Shown here: positions 12,322-62,400 of the stretch, in pieces
Numbering within the stretch: the first letter of the stretch is position 1
How the letters are laid out: each line of letters begins with the position of its first letter
Source: Pecten maximus
Taxonomy: Eukaryota
Reading direction: 5' to 3'
DNA length: 64,000 nucleotides
Assembly: GCF_902652985.1 (NCBI RefSeq)
Contig: NC_047022.1
Coordinates: 14,446,001-14,510,000 of the forward strand
Position numbers and translations under genes: made by a program
Notes under the pieces: model-generated
Told to the model about the DNA's origin: nothing
The model's database searches: none
What the model saw: only the letters and a program-made list of their open reading frames with translations

Positions 12322-15077
12322 TTAGAGTCTGCCGTTGATGGCGTTGACCAGAGACTGTTGAATCTGTCGCAGTTGCTGCCATTCGCATTCATTCAGGCCG
12401 TGAATGTTCAAGGTCATGGAGTGCAAATCTGACACGGGAGAATAACAAAAACGTGTAAGTCGCTGATAAGCAATTTTTGGACACTTCTGATACGTATGTG
12501 ATCGTATTAACCCTAGGATTTATGATGTTTTATGGGCCTTTTAGAAATCTGATATTAGCCAATATTCGGATTAGTCATAGTTTATTCTGAAAACGTAAGG
12601 TTTGTGGGAAATATGCTATGTATACACGTCACAGGGGCTCGTTCCTATATGCTCTCTTCAAAACTTTATTTACCTTTACAACAATTGCAAAACAAGTTAC
12701 CATATATCAATTTAAATTAATCACTCTTGTTGGCCCTAATAGAAACACCCGAGAGGAAACCAGGGCACCCGTAGAAAACCCACGTAGTCGGGCAGGTGAC
12801 CGATCCGGGAATCGAACACTGGCCGCCTAGGTGAAAGATAGGCGAGTGTGTACCACCCGACACCCCTATGACCGATAATTTTTGTGACAGATCTGACGAC
12901 TACAGTGGTCGTTATACTTTATCTGAGCTTGCGACTTACGGAGTTTGTTGTGGATCAACAGTAGACGTATTTTGTCAATAGTAGGCACGACCAGATGGCA
13001 GCACAGTTGTATATGTCTTAACTTCCGGTTCGATATCAGCAAATACAACAGCTCCTCATCTATCGGTGGGTTCTTGTCCAGCTGGAGAGTTAAGTGTTCT
13101 TAGAAAGAAAGAAAAATATTGCTAGCTCTTTTGAAGCGCACAACCAGCTCTTTTTGCTGTACTCGGTATTTCTTGGATTTGGCCTTTTAGAAGTCTACTT
13201 TGCGGTTGTCCTCAATGACGTCTAAACATTTTTCAAGGATCTTTTGTTTCTTAATTCTCCCCTCGTTTCATCTCTAGGTTAGAATATTTAATCATGTATA
13301 GATGATGTTCGTGTCGGCCCCCAGTTTTTTCAACGTTCTTGTTCTAAAATGAGCTTCTTAGTTAAGATAAAAAAACTCCAGGAAAGTCATGCTTGGATAA
13401 ATCTTAGCTAATATTTAGCTTGGGGATTTTCGAAACATTTTATGGTAGGAATATTGATGAAACGAGGGTTTGCTCCGGTTAATTAGTATATATTCCTCTT
13501 TATATTAGAGTAGGACATTCTGGTATGTCGAAGATTCAATGAGATTGCTATTACAACCACAGGATCTCGTTTCTATTTATATTGATCAGTAAAATATGAT
13601 ATTGATATTAACCATTGACACTTGGCCCCGGTTTCAGCAACATTCCTTAGGGTTATTCCTTAACTTGAAATTTTCCATCGTAAGCATTATTTGATTTAGG
13701 GAAACAATCTTAACCGGGAAATGTTCCCTTAAATTCTGTAATGCTTTCCTATGGGGCAATTTAAGTTAAGAGGTTTCCTAAGTTAAGGAATATTGATAAA
13801 ACTTGGGCTCATACTGGATTCCAGTATTATTTTACTAATCTATAAAAACGAGCTCATGTGGTTCAAGCTCCAAAATCAGTTATGCATTATGGTTTTACCA
13901 AAATTCTTTCGTGTTGCATCTTCTGTTATTGAATGAGTGATAATGTATGTTCATATTAGGTCGTCTGATGACTCAGATGACTACGTTCACAATGAATGTC
14001 TCATAACTACAAGTAGCATATACGTACCAAGTGTGTCCTGGTACGTTCTTCCGATATGTCGGACCAGAAATGGAATCTGTCCTTGCATGTCATCATGTGT
14101 TGCAATCGATGCACATGACACGACGTACATTTCTCTGACTGGGATTCCTTTGACCAGTGGCGCAGTAGGATCGTAGAGTCTTCCCGTAACGTATATATAG
14201 AGAATCACCACTGCATCCGAACATTTCTTACTAAAATTGTTCCATACTTCTGATGGAATAACAATATGGCTCACGTTCTTTTCTATTGAAAGTGTCAGTT
14301 TCTGCAATGTGTTGCTCAGGTTTTCAGCGAAGGAGTCTAAAATATCTGAGTTGATAGATGAATAGTTGACGTATATCTGTGTGAGGGCTGAGAATTTGGA
14401 CAATGTACTTATGTACCGTCTGTGACGTATCGGCAAAACATTTGTCTGGAAAAGATCGTCAGCAGATAACACTTTGAGCGTCTTCCCAGCGTAACCGCGG
14501 CTAAGGGATTCAAGCAGACGACAACCTTCGTGTAACGAAAGCCGACAGGAAACGACACTGACTGATTCCAGATATCGAAGACGCCTGAACAATCTACAGA
14601 GAGCCCCAATGACTTTATTACGTGATATCCAAAAGTGCCAGCAATTCTCCAAATCCAACTGATGCAAAAACACTCTAGGTGAGACGTATCTTCGAGTCGT
14701 AAAGTAGATGTTTCAGATAAGTTTCGGCTGCCAGCGCCATAACCTTGACCGTCCGATATGTCGGTTTACCGAAAGGAAAGCTTTAGTGTCTTTAAATACT
14801 TGCCCATGGTGTTGATGTATTGACACTCACGCTTCGCCTTATTTTCGGCCTTCAGTCCCATAAAATGTACCCGTCTACGTCGCCAAAGGGACGGCGTATA
14901 AAACAGATCCCGCCATCGCCTGCAGACGCATGCCATGTGCAGCCTCGCGTGGTCACACAGATATCCGTATATTTGTATTACCAGAATGTCGGGTAAGTTA
15001 TTCCATCTTGAACTAAAGTCGTCATCCTCTTCTGAAATTTTGAGGTGGCTATCATCTTGTTTTTCCACCGCCGCCAT
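12322..15077 (-). CDS. FBXO39: FBXO39-like F-box protein (F-box plus LRR-like region); frame interrupted at 14675-14769
   Basis: Segments (-): 15077-14770, [95-nt GT-AG segment], 14674-14028, 13098-12940, 12428-12322. F-box WNNLPDILVIQIYGYL...ACVCRRWRDLFYTPSLW. The downstream motifs EGCRLLESLS, VNYSSINSDIL and IDEELLYLLIS resemble FBXO39 as recalled. AATAAA (-) at 12236-12241. Orthology versus paralogy is not established. Confidence 0.8.
12745..12866 (-). mobile_element. Degenerate tRNA-derived SINE (V/Meta-like core)
   Basis: Minus strand GTGTTCGATTCCCGG (B box) and GGGTTTTCTACGGGTGCCCTGGTTTCCTC (core). Confidence 0.6.
13624..13809. mobile_element. Degenerate MITE (Harbinger-like termini)
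   Basis: Imperfect inverted ends GGCCCCGGTTTCAGCAACATTCCTTA / TAAGGAATATTGATAAAACTTGGGCT; related relic at ~13316-13470. Confidence 0.45.
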
Positions 15078-15188
15078 TACAACCGAGCATTGTGACGTAA
15101 TTTCAAAACAACGTCATATTTCGCGGAAGAAATTGCACAATTAGTATGGCGGGTGTCGTCGATGAAGCAGAAGGCGCTTACGGAGCAT

Positions 15189-17966: not shown

Positions 17967-18611
17967 GTAATAGAGGAAATTGAGATTCCAAGATATGTGA
18001 ACATGCCAAAAGAGGATGGTGAGCTCTCAAGATGGGAAGGATCATTCATAATAAATATGTGTATTCCTATAGTAGATTTCAAGCAATCTAAGTACTTAGT
18101 AAGCTTTTATTACATTTTTACCAGTGAGATATCAAAAATTATTCATTCTATAAAAGTGATATTTTTCACTAGTGAAAAAATATCAATATATTTTAGGGTG
18201 GGGTGGGGTGAGGTTTGGAAAAGCAAAGGGTCATTTATAGAGGAAATAAGTGTTCTTAGGGATGAGGGAATGCTAAGAGAGGGGGACATTCATAACTGTC
18301 TGGTGGTGGTGGTGTGGTGTGTGTGTGTGTGGGGGGGGCAGTTATACAGGGGAAGGAGCTTTTATAAGGCAAATAGCATGCCTGTGGGGAAGGGGGGGGG
18401 GGGGAGTGGTATTTATACAGGGGAGGAACACCTAAAAGGGAGTAGGATGGATGCCTAGATGGTAGTGTCATGTGTCATTCATTGGGAAGGAGTATGTCTA
18501 GATGAGAGTGGCATTGAGGGGGGGGGGAACAGACCTAGTGGGGAGTGGTATTCATAAGGGTGATGCTAAGATGGACTATATCTAGAGGAATTGGGTGAAA
18601 GAGCAGGCCTC

Positions 18612-19070
18612 TTATCTCTTATCTCCCATTCTCTCATTCTCCATCCCCCACTCTGTCATTCTCCATCTCTCACTGTCATTCTCAATCTCTCACTCTGTCA
18701 TTTTCCATCTCTCACTCTGTCATTCTCCATTTCTCATTCTCCATCTCCCATTCTCTCGTTCTCCATCTCTCACTCTGTCATTCTCCATCTCTCACTCTGT
18801 CATTCTCCATCTCTCACTCTGTCATTCTCCATCTCCCATTCTCTCGTTCTCCATCTCTCACTCTGTCATTCTCCATCTCTCATTCTCTCGTTCTCCATCT
18901 CTCACTCTGTCATTCTCCATCTCTCACTCTGTCATTCTCCATCTCTCACTGTCATTCTCCATCTCCCATTCTCTCGTTCTCCATCTCTCACTCTGTCATT
19001 CTCCATCTCTCACTCTGTCATTCTCCATTTCTCACTCTCCATCTCCAATTCTCACATTTTCTGTCTCCCA
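18612..19070. repeat. CT-rich 22-bp minisatellite, ~20 variant units
   Basis: Unit CATTCTCCATCTCTCACTCTGT with variants CCCATTCTCTCGTT. Confidence 0.9.
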
Positions 19071-19502
19071 TAACATTGTCTCATGCACAATTTCTCTCTT
19101 GTGGACAACATGATGTCAGGATCAGTTATACCATGTTTCCCTCTCTGCTTCATGACAAATTACCTTTATATGAAAGTGCCACTGTATTACACTCCTCGTG
19201 TATTTCTCTACACTCATTATATTGGATATCTCTTAAACATCCTGTCTGTGTCAATACGATCAAACCTGTCTATAAAAGAGCTCAATGAAGCAGAGGAAAA
19301 TTGTCTTTACAGAATGTTGGTCTTTGAGGACAGGTTGATAGGGAGGTGGCTGGTAGCCTTTAGGGCAGGTTTGACTGCATATCCTCCATGTACCTTTTGC
19401 TTACATGATTTTACACAAATGTTCCTGTTTAATCACTACTTCTCTCAAAGAACTATGTTAATGATGTAGTCAGGTGATCCAGTTTGCTAAGTTACTGTGC
19501 CG

Positions 19503-43080: not shown

Positions 43081-43567
43081 AATGGACTTGTAATGGAATA
43101 AAAATTGTATACTGCATGACTACTTGATTTCAGGCTTTGGGCAAGCTTCTTCTAGAGCCTTGGTCAGAATGGTGTTGTTTCTTTTCATCAAATTGAATGT
43201 TCTTGGTGTTTTAAGCAAGGAGGGGTGTCCAACAGTGACACTATGACATCAATGAAAAAAAAGTGTGTTGACATGCTTGTGACTATTTAAGATGAAATAC
43301 TCTGGTCTAAAATCGTATGCAGGAACGTTCTAAATTATCAAAATTCAAAGTAGGTATTGGCTAACAGGCCTTAAAAAAGGGCCTGATGAAACTTTGATTG
43401 GTATACCTTGCATTTGTTTGCAGTGGTCTTATTGTATGCCTTGTTTTATTTCCTTAAGTTAGTAGTAAACTTTATCTTGACAAAAAACTAAACAATTTGA
43501 TATTCGTTTCATAATATAATATTAAGTTTCAGTACAAAAATACATTGCATACATGTTACCATTAGTG

Positions 43568-46500
43568 CTATATAGAGTGTCGTAGCCTGGAATAGACGAC
43601 ATGAGCCACCCCTGACACCAAGGCATGGTTAGCGAACTCCAGAATATGTTGCACCAGCGGGTAGGCAGGTAATGGAATGTCATTGGCACAGAACTTTTTT
43701 ACTGGTGGACTGTAATCATGGTCACCTCCAACACATGGACTAGGGGGAGTTTGGCTGGTCCACCTCACAATCAGCTCCTTCATAAAGCTGGGAAAAACAA
43801 GGTCTACAATGCTCTCAGCTGGAGGCAAGTTGTCTATACAGTTTATGTGCTTTTGTTTGAAGTCCTCAACCCTTTGGGAAATTTTAGGCTCCAATTTGTG
43901 GAATTCTTTTCCCAACCAATGAGAGACAATGTGCAGAAAAGTGTTTCTTTGTGAGGAGTTGCCCCAGCTGTCATATGCAGTTTCAGTATTTCTGTCTGTC
44001 CCCAACATGTCCAGATAATCCTGTATTAACTGGAATGGAAAACCTTTGTTTTCTTCCAGGAACATATCCTGTATTAGTAACTGGAGTATAGTATGAAACC
44101 TCTTTATAAGAGGAGAGAGTTCTAGATTCTGAAGGTCTGTTTCCATTTGAACAAGATATTTAATTAAACTCTCCAGAACATTAATGCAATCCTTCATCAC
44201 ATCTTTTTTTGGGAAATGTTTTGAAAGGTATTTTTTCTTGCAGTTTATTTGGGAGCATTTCTTGTGATTCATAGTTCTATTTTCTGTACAATGTAAACAT
44301 TGCGGAGTAAGAACGACAATCATATCCATATTGATGTCTGTCTGAGGGGAGGCATTTCTATGTGTGACGGCCTTGGAGTCAGTCATAGGACAATCATGAA
44401 CTGAAGAGTCAAATTGATCAGTTTGAACACCCACTGAAATCTTTGTAACACTTCGTGGCACTGTGTCAATTTGTGTAGCTTTACTGCAGCAGAGAGGCTT
44501 GTGTACTAAGTTTTCAAACCTATATGCAGGGCATATTCCCCAAGATGTTTCCCCATTTTCTGTCACTGTTGATTGGAAGGATGGACAGGTCAATGACCCA
44601 CATGAGTGACAGAGATGGATGTTGACATCTACAGAAAGGTCCTTCTCTCCAAGTTCCTGTATATTGTCCTCACTTGTGTTAGAAGAATGGCAGGATAGGG
44701 CATTATCAGCGACCAGGGGTGCCTGTCCTACGTCTTTTTGGACATTCTCCTCTTCAGAATTAGATGTGTCCTTGTCATTCTCAATAGCATCCAGTAGGGA
44801 AGTTTCATTCATCTGGTTTATTTGTTTTGTTGAATTGTTGGAAGTTATATTTTCCTGTCTTGAATCATTGCTACCACTATCCCTGCCATGCTTAACCAGT
44901 TCTATGACAACCTCTCCTCCAGTCAGGGGAAACAACTCCTGCTCCACATCTGATCTAGGAGAATCTTTGTTACCCACGCCTGGTTCAGACAACTTGTAGG
45001 ATTCCTCTACAACTGGAGTGGAATCGCCTTGAGAACACTGAATATCCATGGTAACAGTAAGACTTTCTGGAAGATTATCATCATGATATCTGCAAAGCCA
45101 CATATCCTACAATAAAATAGTTTAATATTAATTCTACCATGCTTGCTATGCAACGCCAGTTTTGATTGGTTTAAAACCATGTATTATTTTCCAATAACCC
45201 ACGCTCGTGCCAATAATACACGCACGTGAGTCACGGCTGTTACAATTTTATATATCTAATATTCACCCATTTCATCAGCGGTCACCACAGCCGAGTGGGC
45301 TAATGGGTTAGTCTTTCAATAAATTTTTATCACGACGCGAGTTCGAATCCTACGGAGGCCCCCTTTTTTTCTTTGTTTTTTTTTTCTTTTTCTATCCTTT
45401 TTTTCAAAATCAATGCCATATGATAGATGCTCTTGATCGTAGTACTGTATTGCCTGTATATTTCATCAACAAATAATGCAATACTCAAGAAATAAAGTAC
45501 AAGGTTTTCTCTGGGTTTCTTTGCCGTTTTTCTATTAAAAAGAGGTCGATCTCAGAACTAAACAGTACATGGTAGAATAGAAATAATCAACTTTGACTCG
45601 TGTATTGTTGCAGCCTTCGTTATTAATTCAATTGCAAAATATCCTCGTCCTCGTATATCCTGCAATAATACACGAATCATCGTTAATTATTTCTTAAATA
45701 ACCGGCCAGCATCCTAGTAATCTAATATAAATGATATTTACATTAAATATAGTTATTGTTAATTTCTATTACTGAAATTAATTAAACCAGTCAACATAGC
45801 ACCATTATATTTCTTATTTGAAATTAACTGATAATTAATTAGTAGATGATTTCAAGAACCATAAACTTGACAACTCAATACTTGAACTGACTTGTAATTG
45901 GTTTACAAAACACTGTTGATTTCATTTAAGCTCTTCTCTAGAGAATGTAAATGATCACCTTGAGTTTAGACAGGCAGTCTCTTTGTACACACTTTTCCTG
46001 GTATTCAAATACCACCTGGAACACACCACAAATGTTGTAAAACCAAACAGTAGCGCTGTGACTCACTCCAACTACCCGGAAATCTGCAGAGAAGAAAAAG
46101 TTACAGTATAGAGAAATCTGCAGAGAGGAAAAAATTACACAGTGCATGGAGGAAAAAGGTAATAATTACCAAACAAGTTTAGCTATGGCACTTGGAAATA
46201 CAAAGGAATGTCACAGCCAGATTTTTTTTTAGGTAACAGCAGGTATAGTATGAAGATGAATTGGACCACATGCAGAAATCACATAATATAAACTCAGTTT
46301 ATGATGCTCTGCTATGCATTATAAAATTCAATCCATAGTGTAGTATGTGTACTATATTAATATTTTCATTATTCAAATCACCTACTTGTAGGACACCCAG
46401 GTATACCACTGGAACCATCAGATAACTACCCTGTACACTACTTACCTTTCAATAACAGTTTAGTTGCCATGCCATCTTTTGAATAACGTGCATGGATCCT

Positions 46501-49500
46501 GGTGAAATTTTTCGGCATTTGGGAGCAGCCACATAAAACATCACTTGCCAGAAACAACGGTATACCTTGTGACTGAAATTATTTTAAAAAATTGTTGATT
46601 TTTTCAATAAATTACATTTAAGTTTAACAAGCAATATATAATTCAAATCAAAATCCTCAACTCATCATCTCACCTAATACAAAACTGTTATTATGATTCG
46701 ACCTGGAACTGGGTCATGTACATGTATAATGTACATGCCTCCCAAAACACACAGTCGCCACAATGATTTACATGCCCCTCGTAAACAAAGGAGGCCATCC
46801 TTAAATGAACATAGCTGTTGATAGGATATCAAACAATACCAAACCAATCTAAATCCTCTTACTAGAAATAGGTTTGGTCAGTTAGGAAATCTTTTAATTT
46901 GTTTTTGACAGTTTAACTAAGGCTATATGGAGAAGGAATATCAACTTTGATAGTCCTTGATATAATCCTTCATTGAAATGGACAAAAACTTCAAGAAATT
47001 ACATGTAAAGTCTATAGGGTTACTAGAAACATACTGTTTGTTGTTATCTATTCCAGCCTATATATTCATTATTGGACTGAATATAACTCTTAACCCTTAC
47101 AGACAATTGCTGCAATGTCTTTTGTTTGATAAAATTTGTTCCCCGGATTTGGCATTTTTAGCAAATTTTTTGCAGCAAAAAAAAATCATTTTCAAGTCTA
47201 CCTTTGCAGCAATTTCCCACAACTTAAGTTACAAGAACCTGTACCTACATACTTGATTATGTTTGCAATTTACATGAACTTTGCAGCAGTTTTCCGTGAT
47301 CCCCGAGGATTCAAGAACCTGTACTTACAAATTTTTGTTTGCAAGAACTATGCTGAAATTTCTAATAGGTCAGTTTTAAATGTGAATTAGTCAACCCATG
47401 TTTTTTTTCTGTACATGTAGTTGATTTCAATCTGGTAAGATGGATTAGATTCTACTTCGTTGCCTGTTTATGCCTAAACAAAATCTTTTAAAAATATTAC
47501 TTTTTTTTCCACTCCTGGGATAGGCCTATTTCTTCTGAACCAGAGCTTGTCGCCATCTTGATTTAATACTATAGCTTAACATTGTGTAGTTTCATTTGTA
47601 TCTTTATTTTTTATATATTTTTTTTCTTTTTTCTTTTGCAATTGATCATGTTAAATAGCATGATTGGTAAGAAGTTAAGGGTAAGGTGACATAGAACTCC
47701 CAATCTCTCTTTTGTGTAAATAAAAGTAGAACTTGCACTTTCTATTTTGAAAACCATCATAGATGTTGACACCTTTTAATTGACAGTTGGGAATCAGTTG
47801 CATTTCCAATTAGACATTGATTATAATTGATAATTGGGACAACATTAGGTGAGATATTTCTAATTATTAGATATGCAACGGGTCAAAATATTTTACCAGT
47901 TACTTGTGTATATTTAGAAAGCTGAGCCCAAGAAAATTCCAATTATACTGCTCTTATGTAGATTTTAAAATGACAGATCTTTTCAGTCTCAAATTATTTT
48001 CATACAATGTAATAGAAATATATAGTCTTAATATAAGGATATCACTATGATATTGATATTTTTTAAAATTAAACCATAATTAAAATCTTCGAATGTGTGC
48101 CTGTATTTATGATTTATCTACATACAACATTGTCAAGAAATGGCAAAAATAGGCAAACAGTCGAGACAACTTTCAACAAATCCAGGATAAGAACAAATGA
48201 CTGGGCCCCCATCTTGTCAACTATCTGCATCATGCCTGAGGCAAGTTTTATAGATGGAGAGTAATATTTAACAAGTCATTAACCTAAAGGGAAAATGGAG
48301 ACATCCTCGATTTTACTAGACAGAGATGGATTTTACGATTGAATGTGCCCAACATAAAACATTTTCGAAAAATTAGTTTTTGTATTTGGCGAATTTCATG
48401 GTTTTTATTCTTCAGAGAAACGGTGATTTCGGACGCTTCGAAATCAGTGGAAATTGGCAAAAAATATTACTGCTCAAACAACAGTTGCTTATAGTAAGCA
48501 AAAGAGGTGCTGTTACCACAGGTACTAGGGGTAAGAAATTATATATTGTGAATATATATACTATATATAGCCTCGTATAATATATAAAATGGAGCCATTT
48601 TATACAGTAATACGAGGCTTTATGATACCTTTCCTTATTTTACACAATATAAAAAGTAGACAATAGAAATGCTATTTGAACCACATCCTCAAAAAAATGC
48701 TATTAACCAGGTTAATAGGCAAAAGTGCTATTTTTAATACCCGGAATAAACGCATTCATATTTTCGCGGGGTTTTTTGCGTTCTTTCTGATTGGACAATG
48801 TATACGCGTTTTCGACACTTTTTGCTTTCATTCTGATTGGACAATGTATACGGGTTTTCGACACCAAGACGAAGCGGACACAGTAATCGTTTAAGGGAAT
48901 GCTACAGGAACATTTTGGAAAATGGCTTCATCTGACAAATCGACAGCACTAACACAAAACGAGTAATAAAAACGCCAGCTAGCATGCTGAAAGACTATCC
49001 ACGGGGAAAATCATGAGTATTTGTGAAGGATTTGAACACTGGTTTGAGAGAAAAAAATGGAATGATTAATATGCTGGAATAATAAAACAGTTATTGTATG
49101 GGTATTTCTGGAAATAGCACTTGTATTGTCCCCCTTGACATTAACTATTTGCCTCGGCTTCGCCTCGGAAAATAGTTCATGTCTCGGGGGACAATAAAAG
49201 TGCTATTTCCCTCACACCCATACAAATAAAGTATATATATACAATATATAATTTCTTACCCCAAGTACCTGTTACGAATGATAGAGAGCGCATTGCCCGT
49301 TCGCGTAGCGAACTTAATGGTAGAGATGTCTCGGAAACCCCCCCTTTTCCCCCAATATACTTAAGAGTTCAAAAACTTTTTCAGTAACCGGAAACAGGAA
49401 GTCACGACAAGATCCAGTCTTGCGCAAGACTGTATTCAAAGTCACATTCTCGGGAGATTACAAAATATCAAGATTTTAAAAATATGCAAATGTTCACACT

Positions 49501-50198
49501 AGTTAGAATTTGTTAATAAAATTTATCACGAACAATTAAGTTCTTAATTTTTTATATTCAAAACGTAACGGTATAATTTTCAACGAAAATATTTCCGGTG
49601 TTTTACGAGTGCAGCTCCGGTCCGTTCGAGTTGCATGTATACAAGTTTACCAAATATAGCACATAAAATAAAGAGGACTTCCGAATTTTTTTGTTGTCGT
49701 CTGCTGCTCATCTGCGAGATCTGCTGTCCCGTCACCTTGTCATCGCTTAATCAGTCTATTTTAAGACTTATTCTACGATTAGTTTTTGTAGTAAGTTATC
49801 TAAATCATAATTCTTGTTGATATATACTTTATCACAAACCAGTGTATAGATCTGTTGGCAATATATTCATTTTGTAACGTGGGATTTACTATTCTAGTAC
49901 ACTAGATTATGTGTGCTTGTTTCTCGAATTCCATGGGCACCAGGATTGCTGCGCTCTCACATAGGCCTAGGCCATGCCTAAAATTATATTAAGAAGATAT
50001 TGAACATCGAAATCCAACCCAAATTTTAACAAATTAGGCTGTAGTAAAACAATATAACACACACAATACCTCATCCAGTGTTTCAGGGGCATTGATGCAT
50101 TTTTTATCTCGAAGTACGAGAAATCTTATTGATCTGCCACCGAGACATATTGACGATAACTTGATGCTTGCAGACGGTTGCTGCCTCGTATCCGCCAT
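43568..50198 (-). CDS. Uncharacterised ~639-aa protein: Bro-N-like N-terminus, acidic disordered linker with QT motifs, helical C-terminal domain; 4 exons
   Basis: Exons (-): 50198-50070, 46572-46446, 46083-45959, 45106-43568; GT-AG, phases 0/1/0 consistent, 1920 nt. ATG in AAGATGGCG context. The last exon contains the 511-aa ORF from the track. Confidence 0.85.
45131..45694 (-). mobile_element. Hairpin/ICR-type non-autonomous element, reverse orientation, containing a tRNA-like segment
   Basis: ATTCTACCATG (45131) pairs with CATGGTAGAAT (~45568), which abuts the hairpin AGAAATAATCAAC...GTTAATTATTTCT (to 45694). Internal AGCCGAGTGG...GAGTTCGAATCC (A/B-box-like) at ~45290-45350. Confidence 0.6.
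48519..49271. mobile_element. TIR element (~43-bp TIRs) with nested hairpin-type element(s)
   Basis: Left CAGGTACTAGGGGTAAGAAATTATATATTGT..ATATATACT and its inverted copy ending AAGTACCTG at 49271; flanks TTACCA / TTACGA; internal hairpins at ~48565-48622 and ~49090-49230. Confidence 0.7.
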
Positions 50199-50414
50199 CT
50201 TTAAACAATCATGATTTACTCCGAGCCTACTTTAAAAATAAAATAAAATATTTGGATATCGTATGTAAGCATTGAACATATGAAATAGAAGAAACTATTT
50301 GGAATCAGGTACAATATGTATATCTATAAGATTAAAATTCCCTGTATTTTTAATCCAACCAGTCTGAAGCCCTACTTCACTCCGAAGATTCTTTTGTCCA
50401 CATCCGGCTCGAAG
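50199..50414. promoter_or_regulatory. Bidirectional promoter region (uncharacterised gene / ZCCHC8)
   Basis: 216 bp between divergent ATGs; both ATGs lie in AAGATGGCG (YY1-like) context. Confidence 0.7.
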
Positions 50415-56400: not shown

Positions 56401-59400
56401 CAGAGGGTTGGAGAGCCATATAGTTGAGGAAAATAAAGGTAAAAGTTTGATTTTTTTTTCTAAATGAATGTACCTATTAACTTCCGGTTCTTAAGATTTA
56501 CACTGGAAAATCAATGGGTAAATTTTATTGTCCTTAATATTGTAAAGAAGGAGGGTTACTAAAAGGGAAATATAGATTTGTGTCGAGTGCTATTGTTTTT
56601 AACTTATTTAAAAAAAAAAAAGAGAGAGATCAAAACTTTTTCAAGATCAGATGTTGTCTTTCAGAGGTAGTAAAGTTTTTAGTTTGTTTTTTTCATCAAT
56701 AATTAAAAACAAAATTGCTATGAATGATATTTGGCAACAGAAATTTTGTCTAATGTCAACAAAAAAGATTGTTTGAACCTCCAGATGCAGGCTTGGTGGA
56801 TACCGGTATCTTGATTTAGAATGTAATGATTGTATTATAAAATTAGTAAGAGAGATCGCTGTGAAACTATATACACTGTACTTAACTGTTTTCCTGTTAC
56901 TCTAGATTTGGTCATTTCAGACAAGTTAAACTTTATTCCCTACCATTAGTGGGTTAAATGGGTTATATATGATTAATGGGATGAAGAGCTTGAGGTAATC
57001 TTTATTGACAGTGAACAATTAAATGATTGTCTAGTCTAGGAAAGTATGAATACATCTTGGAGAGCTATGTCTGTCTATCATCTTCTTTCTTTCAGAAAAA
57101 AAAACAGCCACTTAAATTGAAAATGATCTTTTTCAGACAAAAGCAAACATGTTTTAACTGCTGTGGTGAACACATGATAGCTGATTGTCCAGAGCCCAAA
57201 GACTTCACACGTATCAGACAGAACAGAGACAAATTCCGTCAGGATAGTGTGTCACAGAAACCAACGTAAGATCAATTTAATCTTGTCAGTTGTCTGTCTC
57301 AATAACACTGCTTCATTGATTCGTCAAACAGATTTAATTTGGGTCAAGAGCAATAAAACATTTTTTGTTGGTTGCTTTCGACATTCTACAAATACAATGC
57401 TTTATATGCATGTATCATCCTACAGCAACTTTAATGTTAGATTTTATCAACTGCTATCTGGAAGCTCTCAGTCTGTATCATAAGATATGATTAACCGTAA
57501 TAGCTACCTTATAATCTAAAATACATGTATACGTATATATATATGTCTTAGTGTATCAAGAGATTTTAAAATATTTCATTATTTTTATAAAAAAAAAATT
57601 CACTTACCATTTATTTTGACCTAATGACCTTTTCAGTGCAGATTGGCCACAAAGAATGTAGTAATAATAATCATTAAATATATTTAATCGTTTTTGTTGG
57701 CCCTGATTGATACATACATAGATGGATGGGGAAGTGAACCCCAACCGTCTTAATGAATACCAAGTGTACTATCACTACGCCATTGTATCAACCACCTGTT
57801 GGCTAACATGTTATTAATCGTAATGTAAAGTCCCATAAGGAATATTTTGTTTTCAGAAAAAAAAGTTTGGTTTATATTCAAATCTTTTTTTATTTTATAG
57901 GTCCAAAAGATATCACTTAGACAAATCTTTCCAATCCGAAAGCAACAGTTTTGTACCAGGTGTTATCAGGTAAGGAAATGATTGTATTGTGATATGGGGA
58001 CTTAAGGAAATAATTAATGTGTTCTGATGTGTATTGAACAGTAGTGCATTGTGTTTCAGTTTTGATTTAACAGTTGTGTACAGTTTCAGTATATTGAACA
58101 GTTACTGTAATAGTTACGCATTGTGTTCCAATGTAATGAAAAAAAGGTATTGTTTCAATGTGATGAGGAACAATAACAGTTACTTATTGTGTTCTGTTGT
58201 AATGAATGTTTGGATGTTTTGTATCAGGAGATGAACAGTTGTGTACAGTGTTACTATAAGTGTTTTAAGCATTGAACTGCTTTTAGTTGGAAGTTATGGG
58301 CTGATGAATGCCAACTGGACAAAGGCGAATTTAATGAAGCGAGCTAGCGCTTCATGTTGAACTTGCCTTTGTCCAGTTGGCATTCATCAGCCCATAACTT
58401 CCAAATGAAAGCGGTTCAATGCTTATATTTACATTTGACAATGATTTTTAAAGATCATATCCAGGAATTTTGCTCCGACGATGAATGAACCAATTATTAT
58501 CGTCAAAGACAGAACAGCGTTTCAACAGCCATCTATCGTTATCGCTGACGTAACAATTATGACGTCACTATAATAATGAGGTCATAATAAAGATTTGGAA
58601 GTTATGGACTCATAACCTTCAAGTGAGCTTGGTAACGTTATATAGAGGGGCTGCAGTAAATGTAAATATTGAGTTATGAGAACACTTACATACAGAATTC
58701 TTATAATTATGAAAAGGAACATATTGTGGAGTAGAACTTTGTTGGTTTCAAAGTGTGGCACTTTATCTTAAATAACAAATGAGAAAATTATTACTTTAAC
58801 ATCACTTTAATTTATAAGTATAATGTTACATTACAGTGAAGAACTGATGGATGCACTGGGGATCACGTCGCGCTATCTTCCCTCATATATTTACAAGATG
58901 AGGGTTCTGGGGTATCCACCAGGCTGGTTGGAGGAAGCCAAAGTACAGAGCTCTGGACTTGTCTTGTTTGACGGCGAAGGAAATGGTTAGTCTGTTGGAT
59001 TTTAAAATCTAATTCAGAATCAGATGAAAAAAATATGTTTTTCAAATACATTGTATGACTATGAACTGTTTTACCACACTGTGTATGACTATGAACTGTT
59101 TTACCACACTGTGTATGACTATGACCTGTTTTACCACACTGTGTATGACTATGAACTGTTTTACCACACTGTGTATGACTATGAACTGTTTTACCACACT
59201 GTGTATGACTATGAACTGTTTTACCACACTGTGTATGACTATGTTCTAATTTACCACACTGTGTATGACTATGTTCTAATTTACCACACTGTGTATGACT
59301 ATGACCTGTTTAACACACTGTGTATGACTATGAACTGTTTTACCACACTGTGTATGACTATGAACTGTTTTACCACACTGTGTATGACTATGAACTGTTT

Positions 59401-62400
59401 TACCAACACTGTGTATGACTATGTTCTAATTTACCACACTGTGTATGACTATGAACTGTTTTACCACACTGTGTATGACTATGAACTGTTTTACCACACT
59501 GTGTATGACTATGAACTGTTTTACCACACTGTGTATGACTATGAACTGTTTTACCACACTGTGTATGACTATGACCTGTTTTACCACACTGTGTATGACT
59601 ATGACCTGTTTTACCACACTGTGTATGACTATGAACTGTTTTACCACACTGTGTATGACTATGAACTGTTTTACCACACTGTGTATGACTATGAACTGTT
59701 TTACCAACACTGTGTATGACTATGAACTGTTTTACCACACTGTGTATGACTATGACCTGTTTTACCACACTGTGTATGAATCTGAACTGTTTTACCAACA
59801 CTGTGTATGACTATGACCTGTTTTACCACACTGTGTATGACTATGACCTGTTTTACCACACTGTGTATGACTATGACCTGTTTTACCACACTGTGTATGA
59901 CTATGTTCTAATTTACCACACTATGTATGACTATGAACTGTTTTACCACACTGTGTATGACTATGAACTGTTTTACCACACTGTGTATGGCTCTGAACTG
60001 TTTTACCTCACTGTGTATGACTATGAACTGTTTTACCACACTGTGTATGACTATGACCTGTTTTACCAACACTGTGTATGACTATGAACTGTTTTACCAC
60101 ACTGTATGACTATGAACTGTTTTACCACACTGTATGACTATGAACTGTTTTACCACACTGTGTATGACTATGAACTGTTTTACCACACTGTATGACTATG
60201 AACTGTTTTACCACACTGTATGACTATGAACTGTTTTACCACACTGTGTATGACTATGAACTGTTTTACCACACTGTGTATGACTATGACCTGTTTTACC
60301 TCACTGTGTATGACTATGAACTGTTTTACCACACTGTGTATGACTATGACCTGTTTTACCTCACTGTGTATGACTATGACCTGTTTTACCACACTGTGTA
60401 TGACTATGAACTGTTTTACCACACTGTGTATGACTATGAACTGTTTTACCACACTGTGTATGACTATGACCTGTTTTACCACACTGTGTATGACTATGAC
60501 CTGTTTTACCACACTGTGTATGACTATGAACTGTTTTACCACACTGTGTATGACTATGACCTGTTTTACCACACTGTATGACTATGACCTGTTTTACCAC
60601 ACTGTGTATGACTATGAACTGTTTTACCACACTGTGTATGACTATGACCTGTTTTACCACACTGTGTATAACTATGACCTGTTTTACCACACTGTGTATG
60701 ACTATGAACTGTTTTACCACACTGTGTATGACTATGAACTGTTTTACCACACTGTGCACGACTATGAACTGTTTTACCACACTGTGTATGACTATGACCT
60801 GTTTTACCACACTGTGTATGACTATGAACTGTTTTACCACACTGTATGACTATGACCTGTTTTACCACACTGTGTATGACTATGAACTGTTTTACCACAC
60901 TGTCTATGACTATGAACTGTTTTACCACACTGTGTATGACTATGAACTGTTTTACCACACTGTATGACTATGAACTGTTTTACCACACTGTATGACTATG
61001 AACTGTTTTACCACACTGTATGACTATGAACTGTTTTACCACACTGTGTATGACTATGAACTGTTTTACCACACTGTGTATGACTATGACCTGTTTTACC
61101 ACACTGTGTATGACTATGAACTGTTTTACCACACTGTGTATGACTATGACCTGTTTTACCACACTGTGTATAACTATGACCTGTTTTACCACACTGTGTA
61201 TGACTATGAACTGTTTTACCACACTGTGTATGACTATGAACTGTTTTACCACACTGTGCACGACTATGAACTGTTTTACCACACTGTGTATGACTATGAC
61301 CTGTTTTACCACACTGTGTATGACTATGAACTGTTTTACCACACTGTATGACTATGACCTGTTTTACCACACTGTGTATGACTATGAACTGTTTTACCAC
61401 ACTGTGTATGACTATGAACTGTTTTACCACACTGTGTATGACTATGAACTGTTTTACCACACTGTATGACTATGAACTGTTTTACCACACTGTATGACTA
61501 TGAACTGTTCTACCACTTGACTTTTTTTACCACACTGTATGACTATGAACTGTTTTACCACACTGTGTATGACTATGAACTGTTTTACCACACTGTGTAT
61601 GACTATGAACTGTTTTACCACACTGTGTATGACTATGAACTGTTTTACCACACTGTGTATGACTATGAACTGTTTTACCACACTGTGTATGACTATGACC
61701 TGTTTTACCACACTGTATGACTATGACCTGTTTTACCACACTGTGTATGACTATGACCTGTTTTACCACACTGTGTGTATAACTATGACCTGTTTTACCA
61801 CACTGTGTATGACTATGACCTGTTTTACCACACTGTGTATAACTATGACCTGTTTTACCACACTGTGTATGACTATGAACTGTTTTACCACACTGTGTAT
61901 GACTATGAACTGTTTTACCACACTGTGTATGACTATGAACTGTTTTACCACACTGTGTATGACTATGAACTGTTTTACCACACTGTGTATGACTATGACC
62001 TGTTTAACACACTGTGTATGACTATGAACTGTTTTACCACACTGTGTATGACTATGAACTGTTTTACCACACTGTGTATGACTATGAACTGTTTTACCAC
62101 ACTATGTATGACTATGAACTGTTTTACCAGTCTATGTTAGGACCATAGATTTGTGTTGTGTTCATTTATCTGTCCACCTGTTCTTTAATTATGTCCCCCA
62201 AACGAAGGGGGGGGGGGGGGGGGCATTTTGTTTTTGCTCTGTTTCTTATTATTATTACCTGGTATTATTATTATTGTTTCTTCTCATTTCTTCCGCCGCA
62301 GAAGTTCAGAAGGATCTTCATGAAACTTCACAGACATACTCATTAGGGACATGGGGTGTGCACACATGTTTTTTTTCTCCGTAATCGGAAATCCAAAATT

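Follow-up and report, generated by a model that had tools for sequence, protein, structure and literature searches.

A spliced, single-copy scallop gene from an animal-wide, uncharacterised family carries a predicted Bro-N-like winged helix

Bro-N domains (PF02498) occur in the BRO proteins of baculoviruses, ascoviruses and entomopoxviruses and in phage antirepressors such as phi11 Gp07; PMC11013392 and PMC5944126 (citing Zemskov 2000 and Iyer 2002) present BRO proteins as regulators that bind DNA. KilA-N/Bro-N-type domains are treated as viral, the known host capture being that of the fungal SBF/APSES factors, whose KilA-N domain is reported (PMC4862756) to have been captured from a virus by the fungal ancestor. 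In animals, the domains of INI1, Ski/SnoN/Dach, BCOR and DNTTIP1 are set apart by an additional helix in the wing loop (PMC4509781). Here, we analysed a gene on the minus strand of a 64-kb window of Pecten maximus DNA (the whole stretch under study, to which all coordinates refer) and found it to be a spliced, single-copy member of a conserved, uncharacterised, animal-wide family. We consider it reasonably probable that its N-terminal domain (N-domain) is a Bro-N-like winged helix and that the protein is a nuclear DNA- or chromatin-binding regulator; as this domain has a predicted fold like that of DNA-binding Bro-N, the gene is likely a regulator that has been overlooked.

The gene is laid out as follows:

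50198-50070, minus strand: exon 1 (129 nt; residues 1-43), with the start codon and the first beta-hairpin of the winged-helix domain
46572-46446, minus strand: exon 2 (127 nt; residues 44-85), with the PLFLASDV strand/helix, the predicted recognition helix and the first wing strand
46480-46515, minus strand: predicted recognition helix (residues 63-74), with conserved N65, R68, H70 and K/R72, followed by K75 and by wing K81 and R88
46083-45959, minus strand: exon 3 (125 nt; residues 86-127), with the second wing strand (WFY), helix 103-113 and the start of the last helix
45106-43568, minus strand: exon 4 (1539 nt with stop; residues 128-639), with the N-domain end (W130), a variable linker and a conserved helical C-terminal domain
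43445-43450, minus strand: candidate poly(A) signal AATAAA, the sole such hexamer within 1 kb past the stop

Joined, the four exons give 1920 nt encoding 639 residues with a single, terminal stop, and all three introns run from GT to AG. An earlier note on this DNA, made from sequence, had three short exons splicing in frame to a large last exon of a host gene. This structure held, with the first 131 residues as written there; the last exon counts 512 codons where the note gave 511 residues, and the gene, placed at 45959..50198, extends to 43568. The junctions were found joined in contigs from public sequencing runs: intron 1 was spliced out (joint 50070|46572) in all four presumed-RNA runs, which come from three studies, intron 2 in three of the four, and intron 3 was spanned by a single contig (run X5), with contig ends at 45958 continuing as the start of exon 4 in 4/4 runs. 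The RNA nature of these four runs is our guess, with no record behind the label, and contigs from 7 of 24 listed public runs were examined. Gene models with these exons are already public in two other scallops (638 and 627 residues), and the gene model is therefore not new. When a coral relative was searched against the 918-Mb genome, one locus matched, the scallop gene itself; this count is a lower bound.

The introns hold several repeats. Intron 1 contains a miniature inverted-repeat transposable element-like sequence (48518-49272) with 52-nt inverted arms, 85% complementary and 651 nt apart, an inner 49-nt hairpin (49110-49210) and a 46-nt tandem pair (48773-48864). Intron 1 segments at 49295-49960 are covered by several distinct, loose-ended RNA contigs and are probably repeats transcribed elsewhere. 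Repeats in intron 3 (45131-45694), possibly a short interspersed element, occur at very high abundance, with summed RNA-contig depth in the thousands, and include a 35-nt inverted pair (45579-45694) and a tRNA-like GGTTAG...GTTCGAATCC near 45310-45355.

Searching with the C-terminal part returned 8 proteins. The top ones, 76-77% identical, come from three scallops, which points to scallop DNA in the window. The N-domain is complete in six of the 8 and partly or wholly missing from one isoform and one fragment. A profile search gave 85 proteins, 70 of them with the N-domain, and a wider search 227 matches at E<=0.001, of which the 150 listed underlie our findings. Both domains are present in 112 of 210 family proteins, 8 have the N-domain only and 90 the C-terminal domain (C-domain) only, many of the latter looking like fragments. 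Names were taken for 30 of 125 new representatives. Named members come from a sponge (Corticium), Trichoplax, corals, an anemone, a jellyfish, molluscs, a brachiopod, a bryozoan, an annelid and nemerteans, and from myriapods, echinoderms, hemichordates, amphioxus, sharks, teleosts and amphibians; no amniote, insect, nematode or non-animal was seen among them, which at 30 of 125 is not proof of absence. An oddity of scallops was ruled out by this spread of members from sponges to amphibians. In a tree of 36 named proteins over 264 columns, scallops, Mytilus, nemerteans, corals, amphioxus and vertebrates were each recovered with 93-100% support, the vertebrates as shark, then teleosts plus amphibians, and deep nodes were without resolution; the tree is in line with vertical descent of the family. 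Identity to other scallops is 83-89% in both domains and 54-57% in the linker. Members are annotated as uncharacterized or hypothetical, save two oyster records in one cluster with a G-protein-coupled receptor name. The oyster model so named (P0370/P0369; 1019 residues) holds both family domains (residues 11-131 and 465-590) and is probably a merged model, which brings the name 'cephalotocin receptor' into its cluster.

For the N-domain of Ylistrum, 87% identical to the scallop domain, the predicted model (pLDDT 92.6, pTM 0.86) has the order hairpin-strand-helix-helix-wing-helix-helix, as does the coral model, and this Bro-N-type fold is seen over the whole predicted domain. Helix 63-74 is followed by strands 79-83, 88-89 and 97-101 with no helix between them, and by a last helix (116-132) whose W130 is kept in 80/81 relatives. 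Among the top 12 of 48,161 solved chains, the best by Z was granulovirus Orf22 (Z 7.1, root-mean-square deviation 4.2, 99 residues), and the others included Mbp1 (6.4 and 6.3), Dachshund (5.9), SnoN (5.5), Bqt4 (5.2 and 4.7), DdrC, Swi6 and SMARCB1; the PCG2-DNA complex matched at Z 6.2. The best 50 viral structure rows for the Ylistrum model comprised 20 Bro, 8 repressor/antirepressor, 13 unnamed and 9 other entries (one KilA-N and one N1R/p28 among these), and the best 50 for the coral model 23 Bro-named and no KilA-N entries (Foldseek probability up to 1.0, E at least 1.2e-3, predicted models on both sides). Bro-N clusters made up five of seven structure rows in the ESM Atlas, with TM 0.54-0.59 over residues 8-139. 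The extra wing-loop helix of DHD-like domains is absent from the Ylistrum model and appears as a mere 3-residue turn in the coral model; these predicted models match the Mbp1-type winged helix without that helix. Alignments with Ski/Dach end at residue 115-116, before the last helix, which the Orf22, Mbp1, PCG2 and Atlas Bro-N rows include. With no extra wing helix and a last helix shared with these rows, the domain is therefore predicted to be of the plain Bro-N/KilA-N type.

Sequence comparison gives thin support for assigning the domain to Bro-N itself. The Pfam Bro-N model (cut-off 25.6 bits; phi11 control 84.8) matched 0/8 proteins at E<=10, 0/53 at E<=0.05 and nothing in the genome, and Bro-N was absent from the 25 families listed, out of 47, for the 85 members; KilA-N and Ski_Sno gave no match in the 8 proteins or the 53 relatives. 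Against phage Bro-N sets, hhalign aligned the first motif alone (PLFLGaDV/PWFVAkDV; 28 and 16 columns, P 0.017 and 0.033), with scores exceeding 60/60 block shuffles, and failed in global mode. Hidden Markov model cross-scores were higher for real than for reversed sequences in 51/52 and 72/81 cases and in 23/85 for the C-domain, the sole control set (no KilA-N or Ski set), and never exceeded 8.1 bits, the sequences being related. The Bro-N test sets comprised the 43 of 120 proteins that passed an 80% filter, followed by 4 of these together with 9/10 phage genes (one split gene omitted). This null Pfam result and thin sequence signal are why the domain is called Bro-N-like and not filed as Bro-N. 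All four motifs that the earlier note had listed in order (GRSIRFL, GIPLFLASDV and LKDMWL among them) are present and conserved across the family. The resemblance to Bro-N claimed there survives for the predicted fold, whose nearest predicted structures are Bro-N proteins, and is without a Pfam match, with the profile match confined to the first motif.

Three spliced introns, one copy found and host neighbours argue against the scallop gene being encoded by a virus, phage or mobile element. Its domain may derive from one, as first proposed, but our searches found no viral relative by sequence, and animal Ski/Dachshund/INI1 and fungal Mbp1 domains belong to the same fold superfamily, with Z within about 1 of the best. 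The fold is also found in old cellular proteins, and the direction of descent is not readable from structure rank. We see a nearly even chance that the same regulator carries an old cellular winged helix, sister of those in Ski/Dachshund/INI1/BCOR/DNTTIP1 and vertically inherited; its closeness to Bro-N would then reflect a shared plain form of the fold and not viral capture, which is compatible with the mechanism proposed below. Such descent is harder to square with the family models, which lack the wing-loop helix said to define DHD-like domains (PMC4509781), with the Ski/Dach alignments that stop short of the W130 helix covered by the Orf22, Mbp1, PCG2 and Atlas Bro-N rows, with the lack of any non-animal among the named relatives, and with the weak sequence signal towards Bro-N. 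More tentatively, the ancestor of animals may have acquired a Bro-N gene by capture from a DNA virus or phage; the resulting single-copy transcription regulator would have been retained from sponges to amphibians, with its link to HCF-1 added later. The animals-only range of the named members and the viral nearest folds fit a capture before the sponge split, and because the family is pan-animal, any capture would be older than the sponge-eumetazoan split.

The N-domain is basic in 74/81 relatives (+7 in the scallop protein), compared with 30/85 for the C-domain, and R25, N65, R68, H70, K/R72, K75, K81 and R88 are kept on the second helix and wing across 81 domains. These are the DNA-contacting elements in Mbp1 and INI1 (PMC4509781). 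The surface-type residues conserved most strongly are basic and sit on these elements, which argues against a domain that keeps the fold but binds protein, as in Bqt4, the Swi6 N-terminus and BCOR PUFD. A scaffold of that kind, in place of a DNA binder, is in our view unlikely, although the structural neighbours include complexes of Bqt4-Rap1/Sad1, Swi6 and BCOR/PCGF1, and the title of the best solved match names an envelope protein domain. A chance resemblance to Bro-N, in a small alpha/beta domain of common arrangement, is very improbable.

The rest of the protein has these features:

43571-43975, minus strand: C-terminal domain (residues ~505-639), conserved, predicted to be all-helical, without a known match
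43712-43723, minus strand: DHDY (residues 589-592), an HCF-1-binding motif (HBM) consensus, followed by the basic patch SPPVKK
44336-44476, minus strand: three TQT-like linker motifs (residues 338, 354 and 381)

SPPVKK resembles a nuclear import signal, and the TQT-like motifs resemble dynein light chain LC8 sites; [TSIV]QT[DE] occurs in 24/210 proteins (shuffled mean 7.7, maximum 15), and only the motif at 354 fits this tested pattern. Among the 192 proteins that have both anchors, 71 carry D/E-H-x-Y, the HCF-1-binding consensus, in the C-domain loop between two helices (71 of the 135 whose loops have at least 22 residues), compared with 1.2 expected in shuffles (maximum 6 in 500) and 10 matches over 66,584 residues outside the loop. 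The motif is predicted to lie in an exposed, variable segment, as in HCF-1-recruiting factors, and is present in molluscs and several other lineages and missing from coral, amphioxus and vertebrate members. Presence of the motif does not always mean binding (PMC13631171). The millipede Chamberlinius protein (P0107) has four D-H-x-Y motifs in an expanded loop, and similar long loops occur in Strigamia and three unnamed proteins. No THAP C2CH zinc finger was found in the scallop proteins searched, and 1/53 relatives has one: the protein of the crinoid Anneissia (P0096), in which a THAP domain (E 1.2e-12) precedes the Bro-N-like domain, through either a real fusion or a merged model.

From the predicted fold and these motifs we infer that the protein is likely a regulator that binds DNA and, in some lineages, recruits HCF-1, with a layout like that of THAP factors. 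As in the Mbp1 family, helix 63-74 would insert into the major groove and the wing (K81, R88) would reach the minor groove; the long, fast-evolving linker would space the N-domain from the conserved helical C-terminal domain. By docking on the HCF-1 propeller, the loop motif of molluscs and several other lineages may draw chromatin-modifying partners to the sites that the protein occupies, in the manner of THAP factors, and the basic patch beside DHDY may serve nuclear import. The gene looks like the undescribed nuclear regulator for which the earlier note had made it a candidate.

Upstream, the gene faces a divergent neighbour:

50199-50414, no strand assigned: head-to-head interval of 216 nt, a putative shared promoter, from the gene's ATG to a ZCCHC8-like gene (ATG 50415, plus strand)

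A PSP domain (E 4.6e-8) on a downstream plus-strand exon fits the proposed identity of this neighbour as ZCCHC8, and its spliced contigs were found in the same runs. Elsewhere, two open frames (241 and 115 residues; 13990-15113, minus strand) read by eye like an F-box/leucine-rich-repeat protein, and long tandem minisatellite arrays with several frames open lie at 58866-62137, directly after the PSP exon, and at 18570-19285.

Taken together, the family comprises real, conserved, uncharacterised animal genes with a Bro-N-like winged helix, as modelled. With this plain form it adds a candidate new DNA-binding regulator to those of animals and may be a second capture of such a domain at the level of a kingdom; if the capture is true, it would be an animal counterpart of the virus-derived fungal APSES/SBF factors and an unrecognised class of animal transcription factor. 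It can be tested directly in zebrafish-type fish, Nematostella and sea urchin and offers a stable, host-encoded handle on Bro-N binding targets. Full-text searches for ch211-110p13.9, the vertebrate locus, found no paper, and those for Bro-N with metazoa or animal domestication gave virus papers only and not the family (most subscription papers, Iyer 2002 and supplements lay outside their coverage, and a mention in a domain survey is possible).

Among described systems, Bro-N shares with the scallop domain the predicted whole-domain fold, the N-terminal position, the PLFLxxDV/PWFVAkDV motif and a last helix with Trp. The scallop domain differs in scoring below the Pfam profile, in its 6-19% identity and in a longer first hairpin, and the gene in being a spliced single-copy host gene with an HBM and a C-terminal domain that is not ANT/ORF6C-like. 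Unlike fungal APSES/SBF proteins (Mbp1, PCG2; KilA-N, PF04383), the protein has no KilA-N Pfam match that we saw and no ankyrin repeats, and its host is an animal; KilA-N rows are rare among its viral structure matches. The metazoan DHD-like proteins (Ski/SnoN, Dachshund, INI1/SMARCB1, PHF10, BCOR, DNTTIP1) have the extra wing helix and align without the family's last helix, and no Ski_Sno Pfam match was seen in the family. The vertebrate members, under the zebrafish-type locus name si:ch211-110p13.9 (Esox, Sardina and Carcharodon records), belong to the same family, with a shorter linker, no HBM and an uncharacterized annotation. THAP proteins (THAP1, 3, 7 and 11) share the order of N-terminal DNA-binding domain, linker, HBM and helical C-terminus, and one crinoid member carries a THAP domain; the scallop protein differs from them in lacking the THAP zinc finger and in placing the HBM inside the loop of its helical domain, an arrangement found in some lineages only.
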